Assembly: GCA_019058365.1 (NCBI GenBank)
Contig: JAHPZE010000005.1
Coordinates: 225,619-249,618, forward strand
Origin: Promethearchaeota archaeon
GTDB taxonomy: Archaea > Asgardarchaeota > Lokiarchaeia > Sigyniarchaeales > SOKP01
Direction: 5' to 3'
DNA length: 24,000 nt
The translations under genes were made by a program, and so were the position numbers. Of the stretch, positions 9,062-18,573 are shown in pieces; position 1 is the first letter of the stretch, and each line of letters opens with the position of its first letter. The notes under the pieces are model-generated. The model did not search any database, was not told the DNA's origin, and saw only the letters and a list, made by a program, of their open reading frames with translations.

Positions 9062-9892
9062 CTATAATAAAAGAAAAGTTCCTAACAGATATGTATCCAA
9101 ATTCAAATCTTTTAAGAGTTTCATATTGTTATAAAGATAAGCATAAATGTTTTCCTCGCTAAAATATTTAAAACACGAATTGTTCCCTTTTACTTCCCTT
9201 AAGATATTTACAATTTGAGTGAGTATAGTTTTTAGATTTTTAATAACCAAATCAGTATCACTTTTAATTAAATTAATGTCTTTAATATTAAACCATGATT
9301 CTTTGCTAAATGAAATATTCTTTAGCTCAGGTTTATCTTGCATATCTTTATGGTTTTTGAAATTAATGCAAAAGTTTTCAATTTTCTCCAGAATAAAATT
9401 TTTTGATTTGGTATACATTTTATTTTCTATTACATTTCTCAGCATTATTAAAATTTTTTGAAAAATACCTAAAATATCAAAAAAGTCAGCTACTTTTCCT
9501 AAATTTTCCACTTCTCCCCATTGGTCGTAATAATCTTCAATCTCATTAAGAAACGGCAGAAAAATATTAATATTTCCATCCCAATTATGCCCTTTTTTCT
9601 CCCAAACAGGATCGAATTGTTTTACAAAAGCGTTTTTAATAACATTTAATCTACCTAATAAAAGTTCAGTTTTTATATGTTTTGTGTCTGCTGCCACAAA
9701 AAGCAATTTATATTTCTCTTCTAATATATAAACCCATCTTAACCCACCCATTTCTATCGAATCTAATGATTCTTTAAATTCTACCATTGAAAAGTGGTGG
9801 AATGCTGTTAAAAAACCAGAAACTATATCTTCATCGGCATCTGTCTTCAAAAAGGATTTATATAATAATTTAACTCCGGATTCCGCATCCAT
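9062..9892 (-). CDS. Hypothetical protein with possible longin-like (AP-sigma/SNARE-like) N-terminal domain
   Basis: This 276-aa ORF has no competing frame. The N-terminal 100 aa (IVSGFLTAFHHFS...GGLRWVYILEEKYKLLFVAADTK...LLLGRLNVIKNAFVKQF) follow the beta-beta-alpha-beta-beta-beta-alpha pattern of longin/adaptor-sigma folds. The domain call is a weak visual match only. Confidence 0.55.
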   Translation of the reverse strand: MDAESGVKLLYKSFLKTDADEDIVSGFLTAFHHFSMVEFKESLDSIEMGGLRWVYILEEKYKLLFVAADTKHIKTELLLGRLNVIKNAFVKQFDPVWEKKGHNWDGNINIFLPFLNEIEDYYDQWGEVENLGKVADFFDILGIFQKILIMLRNVIENKMYTKSKNFILEKIENFCINFKNHKDMQDKPELKNISFSKESWFNIKDINLIKSDTDLVIKNLKTILTQIVNILREVKGNNSCFKYFSEENIYAYLYNNMKLLKDLNLDTYLLGTFLLL

Positions 9893-10183: not shown

Positions 10184-10444
10184 ATGTTTATGAGAGCTAT
10201 TTTTAATATATCTACTAATTACTATTGCCCGCGATGTAATTCAACTGAAATCGTTGATCATGGGGAATATATCGAATGTTCAAAATGTTGTTTGGATTTT
10301 TTTAAGGATCATTTTGGAGAAATAAATAATGAAAATATTTTAGCAGAGGAAGAATTAAAGGGTGTTATTGATTCATTTGAGGGTCTAAAAGATAAAAAAA
10401 TACGTAAGGTGTTTTTAAAATCTATAGAAAATGATAATTTTTAG
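10184..10444 (+). CDS. Small zinc-ribbon protein (CPxC...CxxC), paralog of 18783..19025
   Basis: The core is YYCPRCNSTEIVDHGEYIECSKCCLDFF, followed by a conserved tail ENILAEEELKGVIDSFEGLKDKKIRKVFLKS. It is about 50% identical by eye to the second copy. Confidence 0.6.
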   Translation: MFMRAIFNISTNYYCPRCNSTEIVDHGEYIECSKCCLDFFKDHFGEINNENILAEEELKGVIDSFEGLKDKKIRKVFLKSIENDNF

Positions 10445-10480: not shown

Positions 10481-12121
10481 CTAATATTCCTCCTTCCCAT
10501 TTTCCCTTATTATGAACTTTTTATTAAAATATATACATGTAAGTCGATTCTTAAAGATCCAATCCTTTCCGAATTCATTCCAATATTCCCTAAACAAATC
10601 ATTAGTAAGAAACTTAGATTTTTCTGCCTTTGCAACTTCTAGAACATATTCATCGGCTTTTGTTCCTGCTGGAGACTCTATTACAATTCGATCTCCAACT
10701 AGTTCTTTATAAAGGCTTCTATCATCCATTTTATGTTTCGTAGAAGCATCTGCTATCATAGTGGGAGTATATCCTACTGAGATAACTGCTCTATGTATTT
10801 TAATGATATTCTCAACCTTCAATTTTTGATTTTCATTCTTATCTAAGTGCAAGATATTTGCTAAATCAACTACGACCATTTTATTGGGATTTTGAACAAT
10901 AATGTTTTCATCTTGATTAATTTTTGTGTCGATTACTTCTTTTTTATTAAATAAAGTATCCAATTCTGAAATTTTTTCTAAGAAATAAGAGTAATCTTCA
11001 GGAGATAAGATTATTTTTGAAGTACTATATCGTTCTAAATCATCTAAACATTTAAAAATCCATTGCTTATATTTATTCCACTCAGCATTGAAGGAAGGCA
11101 TTTCTTCTGATGTGATTTTCTTAGTAGTTCTCTTAATTTCAGATATATTAGGTTTTGGTAATGATGGTTTCTTTTGTATATCTAACTTTTTTAAGATCAT
11201 TTCAAAGTCTAGTTGGTCTGATTCAATTAATTGATAATTTGATATATTCATTTGTTTCCATTCATTTATGAAATTCTCGGGAATACCGTTTTGCCAATGA
11301 TGATTTCGCAAATAATTATAGAGTTTTTGAGGATTATATAACTCTTCTAATTCTAAATGGGCAGGGTTCACTCTTTTGGAGCGAAAATTATGAAGAAGTT
11401 GAATAAATTCTTTTCCAATTTGTCTATTTGTAGTTATAATTATATCATATTCATCTGAAAAATCTTTTAATGCTTTTCGTGGTTTAGATTTTATGTTGTT
11501 AATATCGGGAATATTGATGTCATAATAGCGCCTTGTAAAATCCAAAATTGAATTCCAATATTCTTTATCATACTCAATTAATATTTCGGGAAGCCTTTCC
11601 AAATTTCCGCTTTGATTTAACTCCTTAAAAATTCTACTAGCAACAATCTTAATTTTTTGAATGTTTTCTTGTAAGAGAGCTTCATCTTGCGATGTTGAGA
11701 TAAGATACTTTTCAAATTCTAAGTCAGAATCATCAATATCATAATTTAGAAATTGATTATTCTTCTTATTAAAGAAAATAAATCTACTCCCGTTTGCTAA
11801 ACTGCCAATATTTTCATTTGAATTTATCACACATCGAATCCCTTCTAAATTCATTAGTTCGTTCACTTTATCTCGATTTGCATTATATATAAAATAAAGG
11901 GTGGGATTTTGAGAATAAGAATTGGTTGACTCAAACTCCAATATTTCTTTAAGGTTGTGTAGGGCTGTAGATTCAAGATCAACAACGTTATATCCTGCGG
12001 TAAAAATTTCAAGACCATGAAGGTGCTTCATATCAATATAGGGAAATATCACTAGATTTCTCTGTTGAAAAAAAAGAATATTTAAAAACTCTGGTCGAAT
12101 GAAATCTGAGCTTGTATCCAT
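10481..12121 (-). CDS. 546-aa protein with C-terminal NYN / Zc3h12a-like (PIN-like) ribonuclease domain; N-terminal 410 aa unknown
   Basis: The C-terminal 133 aa (nt 10484-10882) contain VVVDLANIL, TKADEYVLEVA and FLTNDLFRE. These parallel the Regnase-1 NYN motifs VVIDGSNVA, CYDDRFIV and VVSNDTYRD, so the acidic catalytic positions appear to be retained. A GGTGAAGGA ribosome-binding site lies in the 22-nt spacer after the GTPase gene. Confidence 0.7.
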   Translation of the reverse strand: MDTSSDFIRPEFLNILFFQQRNLVIFPYIDMKHLHGLEIFTAGYNVVDLESTALHNLKEILEFESTNSYSQNPTLYFIYNANRDKVNELMNLEGIRCVINSNENIGSLANGSRFIFFNKKNNQFLNYDIDDSDLEFEKYLISTSQDEALLQENIQKIKIVASRIFKELNQSGNLERLPEILIEYDKEYWNSILDFTRRYYDINIPDINNIKSKPRKALKDFSDEYDIIITTNRQIGKEFIQLLHNFRSKRVNPAHLELEELYNPQKLYNYLRNHHWQNGIPENFINEWKQMNISNYQLIESDQLDFEMILKKLDIQKKPSLPKPNISEIKRTTKKITSEEMPSFNAEWNKYKQWIFKCLDDLERYSTSKIILSPEDYSYFLEKISELDTLFNKKEVIDTKINQDENIIVQNPNKMVVVDLANILHLDKNENQKLKVENIIKIHRAVISVGYTPTMIADASTKHKMDDRSLYKELVGDRIVIESPAGTKADEYVLEVAKAEKSKFLTNDLFREYWNEFGKDWIFKNRLTCIYFNKKFIIRENGKEEY

Positions 12122-12143
12122 TCCTTCACCATTAATCAGCTAA

Positions 12144-12806
12144 TTATTCTTTAAAATAGTTAAAAATAACTTGAAGTATTAAATCCTTAAAACTTTGTAC
12201 AACATTCTTTCCTTGCAATGCCTCAGCTGGATAAATTATATATGATCCATCTGGATATCTCTCTTGAAGCGGAAGCCCTAATTGAAGTTTAAAATCTTGA
12301 ACGGGGATTGCATCTTTTAAGTCTCGTTTATTTAACTGAATTAAATATGGGATTTCTTTTTGTTTGGCAAAACTCACCAGCTCTCGAAAACTTCTTTTGT
12401 TTTGTTCTATTTTTTCTGGATCTGAATCACCGATAAACATAATCCCATCAGCTCCATCCAATACGTATTCTCGAGTGGAAAGGAAACGCTCTTGTCCTGT
12501 ACACGTGACTACATGGCAAATGATATTAAACCTGATATCATGTAAAGTAAATTTAAATAGTAAATAAAGAGAATCTTCCCATAATGTCCTTCCTTCAGTA
12601 GTTTCAATTGAATACCCATGAGTTAGTTTGAGTAAATCGAACTTTTCACGTAATCTGAAGAAATTGGTGGTTTTTCCACTTTCTCCAGGCCCCCAATAGA
12701 CTATCTTGAACTGGATCATATTTTCTGTATCATTAAAATCAAAATCTTCGCTTACCTCAACTTTTACCTTATCTAACTTACCTAGATTTCTCTGTTGTAA
12801 TCCCAT
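12144..12806 (-). CDS. MglA-like small Ras-superfamily GTPase
   Basis: The P-loop is KIVYWGPGESGKTTN, G3 is TCTGQ (Thr in place of Asp, as in MglA TxxGQ), and G4 is NKRD. The overall block order matches Myxococcus MglA (KIVYYGPGLCGKTTN...TVPGQ...NKRD). An AGGTGAT ribosome-binding site lies in the 23-nt spacer. Confidence 0.85.
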   Translation of the reverse strand: MGLQQRNLGKLDKVKVEVSEDFDFNDTENMIQFKIVYWGPGESGKTTNFFRLREKFDLLKLTHGYSIETTEGRTLWEDSLYLLFKFTLHDIRFNIICHVVTCTGQERFLSTREYVLDGADGIMFIGDSDPEKIEQNKRSFRELVSFAKQKEIPYLIQLNKRDLKDAIPVQDFKLQLGLPLQERYPDGSYIIYPAEALQGKNVVQSFKDLILQVIFNYFKE

Positions 12807-12829
12807 TTAATCACCTGAGAGGATGTATG

Positions 12830-13378
12830 TTAAGAGATAGATCCAATTTTATCTGAGAATATTTGCTTTTTTAAATCTTTGATATGTTCTTTAATTTCCT
12901 TCTCCGGCATTCTTAAGACATTCTTCATATGTTCATTTCTTTCAATTTCTTCTTTAATTTTTTGAGCGAATTTACTCATTTGGAGGATCATCACACCTAA
13001 ATTTACCTCATTGTCTGTTAAGAGAACAATAAGAATATCTCGTTTTCCCTTCTTTTGAAGTTCAATGGCTCCAATCGATTTTACAAACAATCGCATATCG
13101 TTATAAATAATAGTCGCACGCTCTAAGGATTCTGTCTCAAAGAAATCTTGACCCTGCCTTGCTACACCATATAAAGCCGCCCCTATTGAACTTAAATCCC
13201 AATAGTTGAGTTTTCGATCAAATCGAGAATCAATAGCAATAATTTTTGCGTCTTGATCGATTGCAATTAAACCATATATATAGCCCCTTCGTGTTAATTT
13301 ACCATAATTATATCTAATATCGTCTAATACTTCTGTTATCTTATTTTCATACAACACTTTTGGTATATGTGTTATCAT
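12830..13378 (-). CDS. Roadblock/LC7 (MglB-like) domain protein, first gene of the GTPase operon
   Basis: YGLIAIDQDAKIIAIDS...SSIGAALYGVA...ATIIYNDMRLFVKSIG...ILIVLLTDNEVNLGVMILQM follows the Roadblock/LC7 alpha-beta-alpha pattern, with a charged C-terminal helix. It sits immediately upstream of an MglA-like GTPase. Confidence 0.7.
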   Translation of the reverse strand: MITHIPKVLYENKITEVLDDIRYNYGKLTRRGYIYGLIAIDQDAKIIAIDSRFDRKLNYWDLSSIGAALYGVARQGQDFFETESLERATIIYNDMRLFVKSIGAIELQKKGKRDILIVLLTDNEVNLGVMILQMSKFAQKIKEEIERNEHMKNVLRMPEKEIKEHIKDLKKQIFSDKIGSIS

Positions 13379-13600
13379 CTAATTTTTTCCTCTATATTAT
13401 AATTTTGTTGATAAAATGTAGTAAGAGGAGTATATAAAGAAAAAATTTATGATAACAAGAAACAAAAGCTAAAGTTCTAAATAACTGAAGATTTAAAGAA
13501 TTATCTTTATAAGTGTAACTAGAGACAAAAAAATCTATCAATTCAATTTTTGTGAGATTAAACAAAATGAAAAGGAATGTTTCAATTAATAAGTAAAAGT

Positions 13601-13640
13601 AAAAAGAATTGCGAGGTAGTTAAATAAACTGACCCACCTC
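13601..13640 (-). terminator. Hairpin plus T5 downstream of cysK
   Basis: The minus strand reads GAGGT-(18 nt)-ACCTC followed by GCAATTCTTTTT, about 30 nt past the cysK stop codon. Confidence 0.3.
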
Positions 13641-13667
13641 TTTTCTTACTTTTAAATTTAAATCAAT

Positions 13668-14603
13668 TTAATCATTGTACAACTCAGTTGACAAGTATCT
13701 TTCCCCTGTATCACACGTAATAAATACAATATTCTGCCCATCTTCAAATTCTTTTGAAACTATATTTATTGCTGCCCAAGCTATTGCACCCGAGCTAATT
13801 CCTGAAAAAATTCCTTCTAATCTAGCTAAATCCCTTGCTGTTTTAATAGCATCTTCATATTCTACTTGAATAACTTGATCATAGATCTTTGTATTAAGAA
13901 CATCTGGTACAAACCCGGCACCAATACCTTGAATTTTATGTGGTCCTGGAATTCCCCCTGACAAAACAGGAGAGTCTTTTGGTTCTATAGCGTACACTTT
14001 CAATGTTGCACCCACTTTTTCTTTTAAAACTTCTCCAACTCCAGTAATAGTTCCTCCTGTACCTACACCCGCTACAAAAGCATTAACTTGACCATCTAGA
14101 TCATTAAATATCTCATTCGCTGTTGTTTTACGATGAATTTCTGGATTTGCTAAATTTTTAAACTGTTGAGGAATATACACTTTCCCTTTTTCTTTAGCGA
14201 TTTCTTCAGCCTTGGCTATTGCACCCTTCATTCCTCCTTCTTTTGGAGTTAAAATTACTTTTGCCCCATAAGCTTTCAAGATTTTCATTCTTTCAATTGA
14301 TACATTCTCAGGCATAACAAGAATTAATTTATATCCTTTTGCAGCACAAGTAAGAGCCAATCCAATACCAGTATTGCCAGAAGTAGGTTCAACAATAATT
14401 GTTTCATTATTTATTATCCCTTTTTCCTCAGCTGTTTGGATCATAGCAATTCCTATCCTATCCTTTACACTTCCTCCAGGATTAAAATATTCTAATTTAG
14501 CATAAAGGTTCGGTTTAGGATTTATATTTTCAACAATTCTATTCAATCTAACAAGAGGTGTTTTACCTATTGTTTCAAGTATACTGTTATAAGTGTTTGT
14601 CAT
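13668..14603 (-). CDS. cysK: Cysteine synthase A / O-acetylserine sulfhydrylase (PLP-dependent)
   Basis: KLEYFNPGGSVKDRIG contains the PLP lysine, and SGNTGIGLA and GVGTGGTITG are also present. I prefer the ATG at 14603: GGAGGGGG lies 8 nt upstream, and the cysE stop is 1 nt away. The track start at 14630 would overlap cysE by 26 nt. Confidence 0.9.
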   Translation of the reverse strand: MTNTYNSILETIGKTPLVRLNRIVENINPKPNLYAKLEYFNPGGSVKDRIGIAMIQTAEEKGIINNETIIVEPTSGNTGIGLALTCAAKGYKLILVMPENVSIERMKILKAYGAKVILTPKEGGMKGAIAKAEEIAKEKGKVYIPQQFKNLANPEIHRKTTANEIFNDLDGQVNAFVAGVGTGGTITGVGEVLKEKVGATLKVYAIEPKDSPVLSGGIPGPHKIQGIGAGFVPDVLNTKIYDQVIQVEYEDAIKTARDLARLEGIFSGISSGAIAWAAINIVSKEFEDGQNIVFITCDTGERYLSTELYND

Positions 14604-14604
14604 T

Positions 14605-15450
14605 TTAAATTCCCCCTCCGTGTTTTCCATAATATATTTCTATATCCTCGTGCCTCTTTTTAGTGTTATTTAAGACTCTCGTTTCTAATTCTTTTATTCT
14701 TTTATCTAAACTAGAAACTGCAATTGCGATTGGATCGGGTAGATCTCCATGCCTTAAGTCAATTTTTTCGATTTTTTCTCCTTTTTTAGAAATAATTTTA
14801 CCGGGTACTCCAACCACTACGCAATGTGGTGGAACATCTTCTACTACCACGGAATTAGCTCCGATTCTAACATTATCTCCGATTTTGATAGGTCCTAAGA
14901 TCTTTGCTCCCGCCCCTATTACCACATTATTACCAATAGTTGGATGTCTTTTCACTTTTTCTAAACTAGTTCCACCCAGCACCACTCCTGAATATAAAGT
15001 GACATTATTACCGATTTCTGTTGTTTCGCCAATTACAACACCTGATCCATGATCGATAAAAAATTCTGCTCCAATGTCAGCTCCAGGATGTATTTCAATT
15101 GCAGTTAAATCTCTTGCTATATCCGAAATATATCTAGGGATAAAAGGCATTCTTAATATCCAAAAGAAATGAGCTATTCTATATAAAAGGACTGCTTTCA
15201 CTCCGGGATAACCAGCCAGTACTTCAATTAAAGTATTTGCTGCGGGATCTTTATTGAAAGCAGCATTGACATCTGATATAAAAAAATCTAAAATTTTTTG
15301 TAAATTTCTATCAATTTCTCTATTATCTAAATCTTCAGTTTTAAAATTCAAATTTAATAGACATTCAGTACATTGAGTTTGAACATGTTTAGATTTAGGA
15401 CCTAAGGTTTTACCACAGTTTAAACAACGAAGAAATTCATCCATTTCCAT
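14605..15450 (-). CDS. cysE: Serine O-acetyltransferase with N-terminal zinc-ribbon extension
   Basis: It has the SAT N-domain ([27 protein letters not shown]) and a left-handed beta-helix hexapeptide region ([38 protein letters not shown]). It is preceded by about 50 aa containing CLNC...CTEC. Confidence 0.9.
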
Positions 15451-15633: not shown

Positions 15634-16557
15634 TTAAATAACTTCTAATATTGTTCTTTTCGTAGAACTAAGCTCTTTTTCATTAGAATAAGTATATTCT
15701 TTTATTATTACATTGGATAATTTGATACTATTACCATCTTCAATCTTTTTAAAGCATTCCACAGCTTGCAACCCCCAAATATTAACTCTAATTGAGCTTG
15801 TATCATCGCTTAAAATGAACTTCAATAGAAAAGATTTCTCACCATTCTTTAATGTTAATTCTTTAAATTCTTGAACTTGAACAATACCCTTGACAAAATG
15901 TATAAAACCTTCCTTACTATATAATTCCTCTATGGTGAATTTAGAGGAGCCTGGTTTAGAACCCTTTTTTTCAATAGACTTGGAGTGATCCACATTCTTA
16001 ACTTCGGGTAAAAAAATTCCCTTTGGAGCCAATAATAGCTTTCCTTGCTTACTTAAATGCACTTCTAAATTATCCTTAATTCCTTTTTTAGAATAAGCTC
16101 CAACAACTTGGATAACCTCTCCTGTCTGAAAAAATTGATTAGAAATAATCTCTGTTTGGTCGTTCCACAACACAACCTTAACACAATCAGATTGATCACA
16201 AATTTGAAATGAGCCAACTGTTCCTAGAGTACCATCTTTCCTTAAAAATTCTTTTTTCCCATGAATTTCAATTATCCTTCCCGCTATGACAATATTTCCC
16301 ATATTTTCAGTAATATTAGAGATAGGTATTGCGAAGTCATTATAATCTATAATATCTTCTGTTATGCGATCTAAAATCTCATTATTTTCTGAAGAATCAA
16401 CTTTGACTCCATTCTCTTTTGCTATTAAATATAAAATTGTTTTTTTATTCATGGATCCTTGGAATTCAATTTCTTTTTCATTGATTTGCGCCATAAGTTC
16501 TTCCTCACTAATTCCAGCATCCAACAACGCCTGATAAATTTCTTCAGTTCTTTCCAC
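15634..16557 (-). CDS. RPA-like single-stranded DNA-binding protein (two OB folds, N-terminal helical domain)
   Basis: It starts at a GTG. The N-terminus (EEIYQALLDAGISEEELMAQINEKEIEFQGSMNKKTILYLIAKENGV) resembles archaeal replication factor A N-termini. Two OB-like units follow (IVIAGRIIEI...VKVVLWNDQ and FVKGIVQV...IRVNIWG). Confidence 0.6.
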   Translation of the reverse strand: MERTEEIYQALLDAGISEEELMAQINEKEIEFQGSMNKKTILYLIAKENGVKVDSSENNEILDRITEDIIDYNDFAIPISNITENMGNIVIAGRIIEIHGKKEFLRKDGTLGTVGSFQICDQSDCVKVVLWNDQTEIISNQFFQTGEVIQVVGAYSKKGIKDNLEVHLSKQGKLLLAPKGIFLPEVKNVDHSKSIEKKGSKPGSSKFTIEELYSKEGFIHFVKGIVQVQEFKELTLKNGEKSFLLKFILSDDTSSIRVNIWGLQAVECFKKIEDGNSIKLSNVIIKEYTYSNEKELSSTKRTILEVI

Positions 16558-16763
16558 TATATTCTTTCACACTATTCTATTTTATTCTTAAATAAAAGGA
16601 AAATTACTTTATCTATTATTCACATTTCTTCTTCCATAAGAAATTATACTTCTAAATTCATTTTCAAATGAAATTTTATATTACTTCTTTTTAATTTTAG
16701 AATTATTCTGGAAGAATATTACTAAGAGTTTATATAAAGAAAAAAATTAAATACAATTTTCAA

Positions 16764-17372
16764 TTAATTTGATAAACATTTGATAAATTTAGAAGTTAAA
16801 CCAATTTTATTCCGGGTTCTATGGAAGGCGTAGGCAGAACAACTACACAACGCTCTCAAATTTGACTGAATTATTTTTTGAGGTTCACTTTTGTCAAGTA
16901 AATCAGTTATAAATATCACAATTGTTAATTGAGTCATTAGTTGCGGCCAAAAAAATAACATATCTAATTTTTCTTTTAATCTTCGAGCATTTTCTTTTGC
17001 TCGTTTGTAATCGAACACCGGTGCTAATCGATAAAATCTATGTAAAATGATGTTAATAAATTGGTTTTGATCTCTAGCATGAAGTACATTTGGATTTTTA
17101 TTGATAAATTTTCTGAAATTTAACAGACCTACTAAAAATTCACTGATAACCTTATGAACAAGTTTAATTGGAATGGTTAAGGCTTCACTTATATGGACAC
17201 TTTCGGAAGCTGTTAATGTTCTTACTTTTTCTCTAATTGTTAAAAAAGAAACATTCCGGAATAAGTAATTTAATACAATTGGCTTTAATTTGTTCTGAAA
17301 TTTATAATACTTATTATAATAATCATTAATACTGTCTACTTCGAAAGATTCCTTTTTTAACGTTTGAGTCAT
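16764..17372 (-). CDS. Hypothetical helical protein (possible cyclin/TFIIB-like fold), between the RPA-like gene and fen1
   Basis: This 202-aa ORF has no competing frame. The second half (PQLMTQLTIVIFITDLL...IIQSNLRALCSCSAYAFHRTRNKI) loosely resembles a TFB cyclin repeat. No zinc ribbon is present. The function call is weak. Confidence 0.5.
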   Translation of the reverse strand: MTQTLKKESFEVDSINDYYNKYYKFQNKLKPIVLNYLFRNVSFLTIREKVRTLTASESVHISEALTIPIKLVHKVISEFLVGLLNFRKFINKNPNVLHARDQNQFINIILHRFYRLAPVFDYKRAKENARRLKEKLDMLFFWPQLMTQLTIVIFITDLLDKSEPQKIIQSNLRALCSCSAYAFHRTRNKIGLTSKFIKCLSN

Positions 17373-17478
17373 GATTTCCTCAATATTTCAATTAAATCTT
17401 AATAAATGTTTATAACAAGTGTATTTAAACAAAAAATAAGTGTAAGTGCTAAAGGCTTTTCATATTAAAAGAAAAAAT

Positions 17479-18573
17479 TTAGAGAAGATGATCTAATGTA
17501 ATTTGGAGTTTTCGCGATTTTTGTCTCTGATGGATAAAAAATTCCCTAGAAGTAGTATAATTTTTTTCAAACATATCCAAGTTTTTCTCAACACGTTCTT
17601 TATTGAGATAATGTTCTTCACATAATAAAGATAATACTCTTGCTTTATTTGCTGGATTCCAAAATATATTGTCAATTTGTTCATTTATATCAGGAAACAA
17701 AAATATTTTTCTCACTTTTTTTATTATAACAGGATTTAACTCACTAAAATCGTAATTATTATATTCTTTTAGAATAAGGGTCTCAATGGATTTGTATTTT
17801 CGAATAAGTTGTAATGCTTTTTTTGATCCAATACCATCAATCCCTGGAAAATAATCGATACCAACTAATATCCCAATATCAATAAGTTGAAAAATTGAAA
17901 TCCCTAAATTCTTTAAATTCTTCTGTAAATCAATTGAGACTGGTTGTATCTTTTGGTATCTCCATTTTCCCTGAATTTTCCTTTTTAACGATTTCGAGAG
18001 ATTTTGAATAACATAAGGGCATCCAAATAAGAGTGAATCGAAATCTTGGGAATTTGAGAAATTTGCGATTTTTTGTTTTACTAAGAATGCACATTGAGAT
18101 TCTGCCGAAGCGGGAGAATCTATATAAGGAATACCCAAAGCCCCCAGAAGTTGTTTGGATTCTTCCATTATATTCTGCCACATATATTCTTTACTTAAGG
18201 CAATTTGTCTTGCTAAATCTCTATCATTCTTTCTTAAAGCTTGCTTATACCATTTTTGAATAAAAAGAAAATCTTTAAGTTGATCTTTTGTAATCACTTT
18301 TTTCAGTACAGAAACTTTTCCATCAAAACAAAAAATAGGAAATATTCTCTTACTATAATAAAAATTCACTCGATACAACAAACCATATAAGTGTGATATT
18401 GGTCGCTGAGTTCGGTCTAAAATTAATCCCGCGTCAGTTCCGTTTGAGCTTTTGCGCCTAAAGTTGAACAATCCCATTATGATATTCGGAGCATCAATCG
18501 CTATAATTTTACACTGTAAATCTTGATATTCAAGTTGCTTTCGAATTATAATGTTTTGAAGTTTAACTCCCAT
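17479..18573 (-). CDS. fen: Flap endonuclease 1 (FEN-1, XPG/Rad2 family)
   Basis: The N-terminus is MGVKLQNII...LQCKIIAIDAPNI. GLLYRV...FCFDG, SPASAESQCAFL and an H3TH region (GIDGIGSKKALQLIRKY) are present. The C-terminal QITLDHLL (17482-17505) fits the PCNA-interacting PIP box QxxLxxLL. Confidence 0.9.
   Translation of the reverse strand: MGVKLQNIIIRKQLEYQDLQCKIIAIDAPNIIMGLFNFRRKSSNGTDAGLILDRTQRPISHLYGLLYRVNFYYSKRIFPIFCFDGKVSVLKKVITKDQLKDFLFIQKWYKQALRKNDRDLARQIALSKEYMWQNIMEESKQLLGALGIPYIDSPASAESQCAFLVKQKIANFSNSQDFDSLLFGCPYVIQNLSKSLKRKIQGKWRYQKIQPVSIDLQKNLKNLGISIFQLIDIGILVGIDYFPGIDGIGSKKALQLIRKYKSIETLILKEYNNYDFSELNPVIIKKVRKIFLFPDINEQIDNIFWNPANKARVLSLLCEEHYLNKERVEKNLDMFEKNYTTSREFFIHQRQKSRKLQITLDHLL

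Follow-up and report, generated by a model that had tools for sequence, protein, structure and literature searches.

The closest described counterpart of the locus analysed here is an operon of a Roadblock gene, a small GTPase gene and a DENN-domain gene that Liu et al. (bioRxiv 10.1101/2020.10.19.343400) reported as conserved in the majority of Asgard archaea. They likened the operon to the folliculin complex and proposed a role resembling that of a guanine nucleotide exchange factor (GEF). Few gene neighbourhoods of Asgard "eukaryotic signature" proteins are conserved, and this triad, which is one of them, has been used to argue for folliculin/Rag-like regulation before eukaryotes. We analysed a stretch of 24,000 nucleotides (nt), hereafter the window, from a Promethearchaeota archaeon (Lokiarchaeia, Sigyniarchaeales; GCA_019058365.1, contig JAHPZE010000005.1, positions 225,619–249,618). 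Its minus strand carries a gene for a Roadblock/MglB-like protein (gene 1), a gene for an MglA-type GTPase (gene 2) and a third gene (gene 3), the product of which ends in a Zc3h12a-type NYN ribonuclease (RNase) domain. Judged from comparison with its orthologues, this RNase is an accessory, exchangeable C-terminal module of a conserved gene 3 core.

The window triad is probably the operon of Liu et al., because gene content, order and conservation all match. Going by the preprint text, both combine a Roadblock protein, a small GTPase other than a Rag and a third protein of approximately 400 amino acids (aa). The GTPase was called 'Rab-like' there and is of the MglA type here, and the words 'NYN', 'RNase' and 'nuclease' are absent from the preprint text. 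A first reading of the window, made without database searches (the sequence-only reading), had not recognised a dedicated RNase as effector of such an operon; the triad itself had already been published. New, as far as we found, are the intact NYN domain in the third protein and the interchangeable RNase modules; a literature search returned no paper combining Asgard, DENN and NYN. According to Tran et al. (PMC10933270), small GTPases and Roadblock genes generally do not share operons in MK-D1, a cultured Lokiarchaeon, which makes the window triad an exception.

RNase modules of the gene 3 protein

Homologues of gene 3 were found in Asgard archaea, mostly in Promethearchaeota/Promethearchaeia (Lokiarchaeia-type), with few in Thor-, Hod-, Hermod- and Odinarchaeota. 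The family is small: clustering at 50% identity leaves 134 representatives out of 1.84 billion proteins. A survey with one genome per species recovered 76 loci, 66 of which had enough upstream sequence to assess gene order, and 70 complete gene 3 orthologues. Conservation of the neighbourhood had been named in the sequence-only reading as a check on the triad, and the order Roadblock, GTPase, gene 3 was kept in 64 of the 66 loci, which nearly all belong to Lokiarchaeia-type Asgard archaea; the gaps have medians of 23 and 31 nt. The same order was seen at loci reached via individual homologues. With the order kept in 64 of 66 loci, chance does not account for the arrangement.

The only Pfam match of the window gene 3 protein was the Zc3h12a-like NYN family PF11977 (aa 414–537, E = 1.9e-9, 37.9 bits versus a cut-off of 23), which was also matched in 22 of 60 family members scanned. 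Neither the full 546 aa nor the NYN segment alone had a match in a PDB sequence search, so a fold search was needed. With Foldseek, the NYN domain matched ZC3H12C, Regnase-1/MCPIP1, ZC3H12B and KHNYN with a probability of 1.00 and a root-mean-square deviation (rmsd) of approximately 3.3 Å. Target-normalised template modelling (TM) scores were 0.57–0.71, and at least 0.62 for all but the KHNYN exPIN entry (0.62–0.71 for 7ndi, 5h9v, 6sjd, 3v33 and 8wzc; 0.67 for the ZC3H12C and Regnase-1/MCPIP1 PIN domains). Residues D419, N422, D490, N507 and D508 were invariant in all 24 NYN-bearing homologues, D458 was present in 23 and position 512 was acidic in 21. This constellation probably corresponds to D141, N144, D226, D244 and D248 of MCPIP1. 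The fold matches together with the conserved catalytic residues indicate that the nuclease is very probably active. The sequence-only reading was therefore right in placing an NYN nuclease with retained catalytic acids at the C-terminus of the protein. Among the NYN-bearing members, P0071 (512 aa) carries the JGI name 'ribosomal protein S8', which is almost certainly an annotation error.

The NYN domain was present in a minority of the complete orthologues. Automatic classification gave 43 short forms, 16 with NYN, nine long forms with an RNxxxH motif and one 'other long' form (locus L027). The last reads as a type B domain (see below) interrupted by masked bases, bringing the HEPN-type forms to 10. 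Short forms stop soon after a conserved 'IPS...W..FK.W' helix. A wider census of database matches counted 57 short and 43 NYN forms and approximately 22 with the RNxxxH motif. Since 43 of the 70 orthologues lack a nuclease, the function of the core does not require RNA cleavage. This count does not fit the earlier proposal of the RNase as the dedicated effector of the operon; the conserved partner of the GTPase is the N-terminal ~370 aa of the gene 3 protein. The possibility that short-form loci hide a separate NYN open reading frame (ORF) as the product of gene splitting was checked, and none do.

Most long members without NYN contained the RNxxxH motif, in a few cases as RNxxxxH or RSxxxxH. 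Their C-terminal domains fell into at least three types, here A, B and C, and the Arg and His were invariant in the alignments of types A and B. The type A profile (e.g. P0042, "WFNNIRNKIAHS") matched the HEPN anticodon nuclease HepS (9oij) marginally (E = 0.0094, 19 bits). The invariant Arg and His and the nearly invariant Asn of this type aligned on HepS R100, H105 and N101, which have been validated experimentally (PMC13043305). Type B (e.g. P0056, "RNPRTHNK") was related to the last 170 positions of the PADLOC model PDLC02907, a candidate-defence model of 864 positions named 'TPR' (aa 378–549 of P0056, the product of L007 5001–6767; E = 5.5e-24). The same unannotated RNxxxH domain thus ends a candidate anti-phage defence protein. 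Type B had no match to HEPN families, and its class rests on the motif and on homology to the C-terminus of the PADLOC protein. Type C (P0274) matched the Pfam HepT-like family below the cut-off (E = 1.8e-4, 21.6 bits versus 23.5). When types A, B and C were compared with hhalign, only the RNxxxH motif was aligned, with low probability.

Two groups of sequences deviated from the catalytic motifs. P0019 (546 aa) has 'ANY' where the NYN family has an invariant 'ND', and P0069, P0070 and P0077 (585 aa) have a shortened REAH in place of RNxxxH. Some lineages may therefore keep nuclease domains that have been inactivated.

Exchange of the module was visible at orthologous positions. The window encodes NYN, L007 encodes type B and L001 encodes no nuclease, and the three loci have a 281-aa protein, an Ldh_2 enzyme and a cation efflux protein as common downstream neighbours. 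In a neighbour-joining tree of the core, the C-terminal types were interleaved, with at least 14 changes by parsimony; sister pairs differed in type, and the basal clades consisted entirely of short forms. No other enzyme class was seen at the C-terminus of gene 3 among the sequences examined. We found no published description of such swapping of RNase modules.

The gene 3 core and its GTPase and Roadblock partners

The N-terminal ~370 aa of the gene 3 protein were strongly conserved (55–76% identity in the family search) and the C-terminus was variable. AlphaFold2 models of the full-length protein and of the N-terminal part had predicted local distance difference test (pLDDT) values of 78 and 81, respectively. 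The predicted layout is a five-stranded alpha/beta domain (aa 1–125), an all-helical domain (aa 131–312), a disordered linker, two helices (aa 348–391), a second linker and the NYN domain. Near-invariance in the most diverse alignment was limited to P27, N118, K120, F124, P264, L271, R272 and W276. No catalytic constellation is thus obvious in the core, and these positions more likely form binding surfaces.

The sequence-only reading had left this N-terminal region unassigned. Its model shares a gross plan with folliculin's C-terminal domain, namely five strands and helices followed by a helical region. Against the PDB, Foldseek returned, among its matches, folliculin (3v42_B, 6nzd_H, 6ulg_L) and DENND10 (8p0v_M) over approximately 230 columns, all of them weak (E = 0.66–1.8, TM score at most 0.39). 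The alpha/beta domain begins at residue 1 of the model, and there is no N-terminal longin (uDENN) domain. Ten distant family members had no DENN-type Pfam match at E = 1.

Distant paralogues of the core (17–24% identity) were found at L085 (279–3419) and L087 (2594–6123), with no adjacent Roadblock or GTPase gene. Their neighbours are a zinc-ribbon/TFIIB-like protein of 435–449 aa, the two copies of which are related (BLASTP E = 1e-10), and a DUF1922 zinc-ribbon protein. With different neighbours and the triad not kept, these paralogues were uninformative about the operon.

The gene 2 protein is clearly an MglA-type GTPase as judged by search E-values, which place it closer to MglA than to Rab, Arf or Rag. 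Its best PDB match with phmmer was MglA of Thermus thermophilus (3t12, E = 2.1e-23), and Myxococcus MglA matched at approximately 6e-20. Outside MglA, a Thorarchaeota Rab structure matched at 8e-9 and Arf structures at 1e-6 or weaker; the Pfam match was Arf (E = 2e-9). The P-loop (G39PGESGKT46) and the NKRD motif (N159–D162) are intact. The G3 motif T101-C-T-G-Q105 aligned on TVPGQ of the Thermus protein, with Thr in place of Asp and the catalytic Gln kept. The MglA signature had been noted from the sequence by the same three motifs, and the structure search bore it out. In switch I, R73 and T74 lie within GRTLWED, which aligned on ERTLFFD of 3t12 (RT and the downstream Asp). A role of the intrinsic switch-I Arg is described in the MglA literature, as quoted in PMC10933270, and Asgard MglA groups have already been recognised in the literature. 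All motifs were invariant in an alignment of five orthologous sequences, and the protein was 76–87% identical in six other loci.

For gene 1, we accept the assignment as Roadblock/MglB-like on the basis of the annotation of its homologues by NCBI, JGI and UniRef. These homologues form >120 clusters and are 80–99% identical; nearly all have a length of exactly 182 aa. All three resources give them Roadblock-type names, such as Roadblock/LC7/MglB (a COG-type name, JGI) and Roadblock/LAMTOR2 (UniRef). The gene 1 protein itself had no Pfam match, and neither did 16 homologues even at E = 10. Its PDB match to the Roadblock/LC7 protein 9jue_D was weak (E = 0.16 with the single sequence, 0.72 with the profile). 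The Roadblock call of the sequence-only reading thus stands by the names of the homologues and gained little from these searches. Gene 1 adjoins the GTPase gene in the same orientation, with a median gap of 23 nt in 64 loci.

In a comparison of seven loci, identity was 80–93% for the Roadblock protein, 77–87% for the GTPase and 47–67% for the gene 3 core. The neighbouring Ldh_2 enzyme was 84% identical, a value measured only in the two closest loci.

Locus anatomy and neighbouring genes

The triad lies in an AT-rich window (G+C 25–38%). The coordinates and motifs given for it in the sequence-only reading, including the short spacers with their GGTGA-type sites and the long upstream region, were all correct (Table 1). 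Co-transcription of the three genes, as proposed there, is likely because the spacers are tiny and the gene order is conserved.

Table 1. Features of the triad and its immediate flanks (window coordinates)
Feature	Position	Strand	Details and basis
Zinc-ribbon ORF, 86 aa, convergent with the operon	10184..10444	plus	CxxC...CxxC
Gene 3, 546 aa	10481..12121	minus	ORF list
Zc3h12a-type NYN (PIN-like) RNase domain of gene 3, aa 414–541 (predicted)	10499..10882	minus	D419, N422, D458, D490, N507, D508, E512
Conserved 'IPS...W..FK.W' helix and second helix of gene 3, aa 342–391	10949..11098	minus	Low-confidence linkers on either side (aa 318–337, 393–412)
Conserved family core of gene 3, aa 1–315	11177..12121	minus	AlphaFold2, orthologue identity
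Spacer between gene 2 and gene 3, 22 nt	12122..12143	minus	GGTGA at 12130–12126, just 5' of ATG
Gene 2, MglA-type small GTPase, 220 aa	12144..12806	minus	ORF list and motifs
Spacer between gene 1 and gene 2, 23 nt	12807..12829	minus	AGGTGA at 12816–12811, 4 nt ahead of ATG
Gene 1, Roadblock/MglB-like, 182 aa	12830..13378	minus	Core approximately aa 30–145, charged C-terminal helix; ORF list
Upstream intergenic region with probable promoter, 289 nt	13379..13667	minus	Sequence read

A probable promoter for the triad lies in the upstream intergenic region. A TATA-like element, TTTATATA, is located at 13438–13431, 53 nt 5' of the gene 1 ATG, at the spacing of an archaeal TATA box. A GAGG at 13392–13389 precedes the ATG, and T-runs lie right behind the cysK stop. 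Scans for sigma-70 promoters and intrinsic terminators showed no enrichment (22 sigma-70 sites versus 23.7 expected), the sigma-70 model not being valid for archaea. At the other end, the convergent 86-aa zinc-ribbon ORF marks the 3' end of the operon, its stop lying 36 nt from that of gene 3. Homologues of this ORF were found in the flanks of 13 of the 76 loci, in varying position and orientation. Rfam and tRNA scans of the window yielded nothing, and an NCBIfam search with the proteins of the operon and its neighbours yielded nothing useful.

Upstream of gene 1, a cysK-like gene (PALP, 320 aa) and a cysE-like gene (hexapeptide, 281 aa) overlap by 26 nt (13668–15450, minus). Only 3 of the 76 loci had a cysK homologue in their flanks, and the pair therefore resembles an insertion specific to this lineage, within a gene order that is otherwise conserved. 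It separates the triad from three further genes on the same strand (15634–18573, minus), encoding FEN1/XPG (364 aa), an unannotated 202-aa protein and an RPA-like OB-fold protein (307 aa; matches to tRNA_anti-codon, REPA_OB_2 and DUF2240). Homologues of the OB-fold protein were present in the flanks of 29 of the 76 loci, about half of them directly upstream of the Roadblock gene; the 202-aa protein was found in 20 of the loci and FEN1 in 21. Inherited gene order or a functional link could underlie this synteny.

Downstream of the triad, a 276-aa protein (9062–9892, minus) had been called longin-like in the sequence-only reading. Its match to Fuz_longin_1 was sub-threshold (E = 0.009, 16.6 bits versus a cut-off of 26.1); the zinc ribbon noted in the same place held up by its CxxC...CxxC pattern. 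The 276-aa protein was 77–80% identical in the two closest loci and was found downstream of the triad in 13 of the 76 loci. In L007, its homologue begins merely 73 nt past the triad on the same strand.

At L040, L042–L045, L049 and L051–L053, a zinc-ribbon protein of approximately 128 aa is encoded some 11–130 nt past a short-form gene 3, on the same strand. Its motifs are C..C...C..C, followed by 'YNMF.AFGGYFG' and 'LH.AFLYGI.P.Q'. In those lineages, this protein may be a fourth member of the operon, and it looks unrelated to the 86-aa ORF of the window. Several metagenome-assembled genomes (MAGs) carried two gene 3 copies, all of them short (L046/L050, L054/L056, L044/L059 and L065/L068). 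These may represent paralogous triads within one genome or mixtures of strains. The family was also found in a MAG labelled 'Patescibacteria group bacterium AMOR_Bin_1762', with the full triad at L027 (JANBVM010000009.1) and a gene 3 cut by the contig end at L071 (JANBVM010000035.1), which is probably due to mis-binning or mislabelling.

Proposed mechanism and comparison with known systems

On balance, we think that the GTPase switch recruits or activates a tethered RNase, which makes RNA cleavage one output, and an exchangeable one, of this three-gene Asgard module. By analogy with MglA/MglB, a dimer of the Roadblock protein would set the nucleotide state of the GTPase, either in the role of GTPase-activating protein (GAP) or as a platform. 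The gene 3 protein would either regulate the GTPase in a GEF-like manner or be an effector of its GTP-bound form. The NYN endoribonuclease would be tethered to the core by flexible linkers, with an HEPN-type domain or nothing at the same place in orthologues, and the switch would recruit or activate it to cleave RNA. An attractive idea is that the Roadblock protein might supply a longin-like fold in trans, giving a split "longin-like + cDENN + dDENN" arrangement. HEPN nucleases need dimerisation for activity, and a Roadblock-mediated dimer could provide it for the HEPN-type domains. The gene order and its conservation, the MglA-type motifs, the NYN fold with its catalytic residues and the swapping of C-terminal modules are demonstrated, whereas complex formation, the GAP, GEF and effector roles, the gating of the RNase and its RNA target are inferred.

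A coupling of RNA cleavage to the switch is suggested by the repeated recruitment of unrelated RNase folds to the same tethered position, where no other enzyme class was seen. Module swapping thus lends support to RNA cleavage being functionally linked with the GTPase module and makes such a link plausible. In the sequence-only reading, GTPase-gated RNA cleavage had been suggested for the operon, in the service of regulation, stress response or defence; the link gained strength from the HEPN-type domains at the same position, and the RNase as the effector that characterises the triad was not supported. The 'folliculin-like' module has been read as a forerunner of membrane trafficking and nutrient signalling in eukaryotes. 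We regard it as possible but doubtful that it is instead a GTPase-gated RNA-cleavage switch, at least in crown Lokiarchaeia, in which the nuclease has been exchanged between NYN, HEPN and none.

Several observations weigh against a gated RNase on a DENN-like core. The nuclease is absent from 43 of 70 complete orthologues. The Foldseek matches of the core to DENN proteins have E-values of ~0.7 and TM scores of at most 0.39, and the full-length model also gives loose AAA+/clamp-loader-like matches. No DENN, Folliculin, SMCR8 or Avl9 Pfam match was found in 60 family members at E = 10, and no DENN protein in a PDB profile search with the core. A comparison of the core with the folliculin C-terminal profile by hhalign gave a probability of 0.1%, both with the single sequence and with a 17-sequence profile; these profiles carried no term for secondary structure, and only metazoan sequences made up the folliculin alignment, both of which limit sensitivity. 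The DENN homology reported in the literature was thus not reproduced by fold or profile comparison. Moreover, the Roadblock membership of gene 1 comes from the annotation of outside pipelines, our own tests being weak, and complex formation and GTP-dependent RNase activity are proposals.

The triad could also be a folliculin-like regulator of GTPases in nutrient or membrane signalling, in line with the interpretation of Liu et al., with the RNase as an unregulated add-on, independent of the GTPase cycle, that may serve, for example, co-localisation or general RNA turnover. Such a passenger would fit the majority of orthologues without any nuclease, the strong conservation of core, GTPase and Roadblock protein whatever the C-terminal module, and the long low-confidence linkers through which the nuclease is joined. 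We nevertheless consider it unlikely, since two or three unrelated RNase folds occur repeatedly at exactly the same position, with no other enzyme class among the sequences examined, which points to a functional coupling that is specific to RNA. The swapping between close relatives is also effector-like, as expected of an anti-virus or abortive-infection type system in which a GTPase/Roadblock sensor switch controls a toxic NYN or HEPN effector that is exchanged under an arms race. Type A resembles the Abi nuclease HepS, and a PADLOC candidate-defence protein has the type B domain as well. However, none of the three window proteins matched a family in PADLOC-DB v2 at E = 0.01, and the basal clades and most orthologues have no effector. 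The partners are strongly conserved across species (Roadblock 80–99%, GTPase 76–87%, set against 84% for Ldh_2), and the position beside the housekeeping genes for FEN1, the RPA-like OB protein and Ldh_2 is fixed. A defence system is therefore distinctly improbable. The least probable explanation, and in our view a far-fetched one, is a role in DNA replication, repair or another nucleic-acid process, with the gene 3 protein as a degenerate AAA+/clamp-loader-like adaptor that is not DENN-like. It draws on the FEN1, 202-aa and OB-fold genes upstream on the same strand in 20–29 of the 76 loci, on the TFIIB-like and DUF1922 zinc-ribbon neighbours of the distant paralogues, and on Foldseek matches of the full-length model to clamp-loader delta, Rif2 and MgsA (E = 1e-3 to 1e-2). 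Yet the clamp-loader-type matches have an rmsd of 15–20 Å and TM scores of 0.14–0.27, the core has no Walker motifs, and the synteny may be plain inherited gene order, with cysE/cysK separating the OB gene from the triad in the window.

Should the RNase be an unregulated passenger, what remains is a note on the domain architecture of a known operon. If a gated switch exists, it would represent a type of effector output not previously described for small GTPases, and may point to a new way for small GTPases to control enzymes. The alternative RNase domains are the first concrete, testable clue to the output of the switch, namely RNA cleavage, and they caution against carrying a eukaryotic function over to an archaeal module.

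Among known systems, the MglA/MglB polarity switch (Thermus thermophilus, 3T12/3T1Q; Myxococcus xanthus) shares with the triad the G3 Thr, switch-I Arg, catalytic Gln and NKRD of the GTPase and a Roadblock-family gene immediately upstream of the GTPase gene. The Asgard triad differs by a conserved third gene without counterpart in the bacterial mglBA operon and by a Roadblock protein too divergent for the Pfam model; we know of no link between the triad and motility. The folliculin–FNIP and Rag–Ragulator system is a eukaryotic longin and DENN GAP complex with Roadblock scaffolds. Common to both are Roadblock-fold proteins, a small GTPase and a protein with an alpha/beta and helical (cDENN+dDENN-like) layout, the fold matches being weak. 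In contrast to that system, the gene 3 protein has no N-terminal longin domain and no detectable sequence-profile similarity, and the GTPase is MglA-type and not Rag. To our knowledge, no eukaryotic DENN protein carries an RNase.

The NYN domain shares its fold, Pfam family and conserved acidic Mg-binding residues with Regnase-1/MCPIP1, ZC3H12B/C and KHNYN, at a sequence identity of only 17–20%. Unlike those proteins, the window protein has no CCCH zinc finger, and its NYN domain is fused to a GTPase-associated core and not to RNA-binding modules. The HEPN RNases HepS and HepT resemble the RNxxxH domains of types A and C, by marginal matches, and these domains occur in relatives of the window protein and not in the protein itself. 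HepS and HepT, like RNase L and Ire1, are HEPN RNases under the control of an attached module that acts as a sensor or binds nucleotides.

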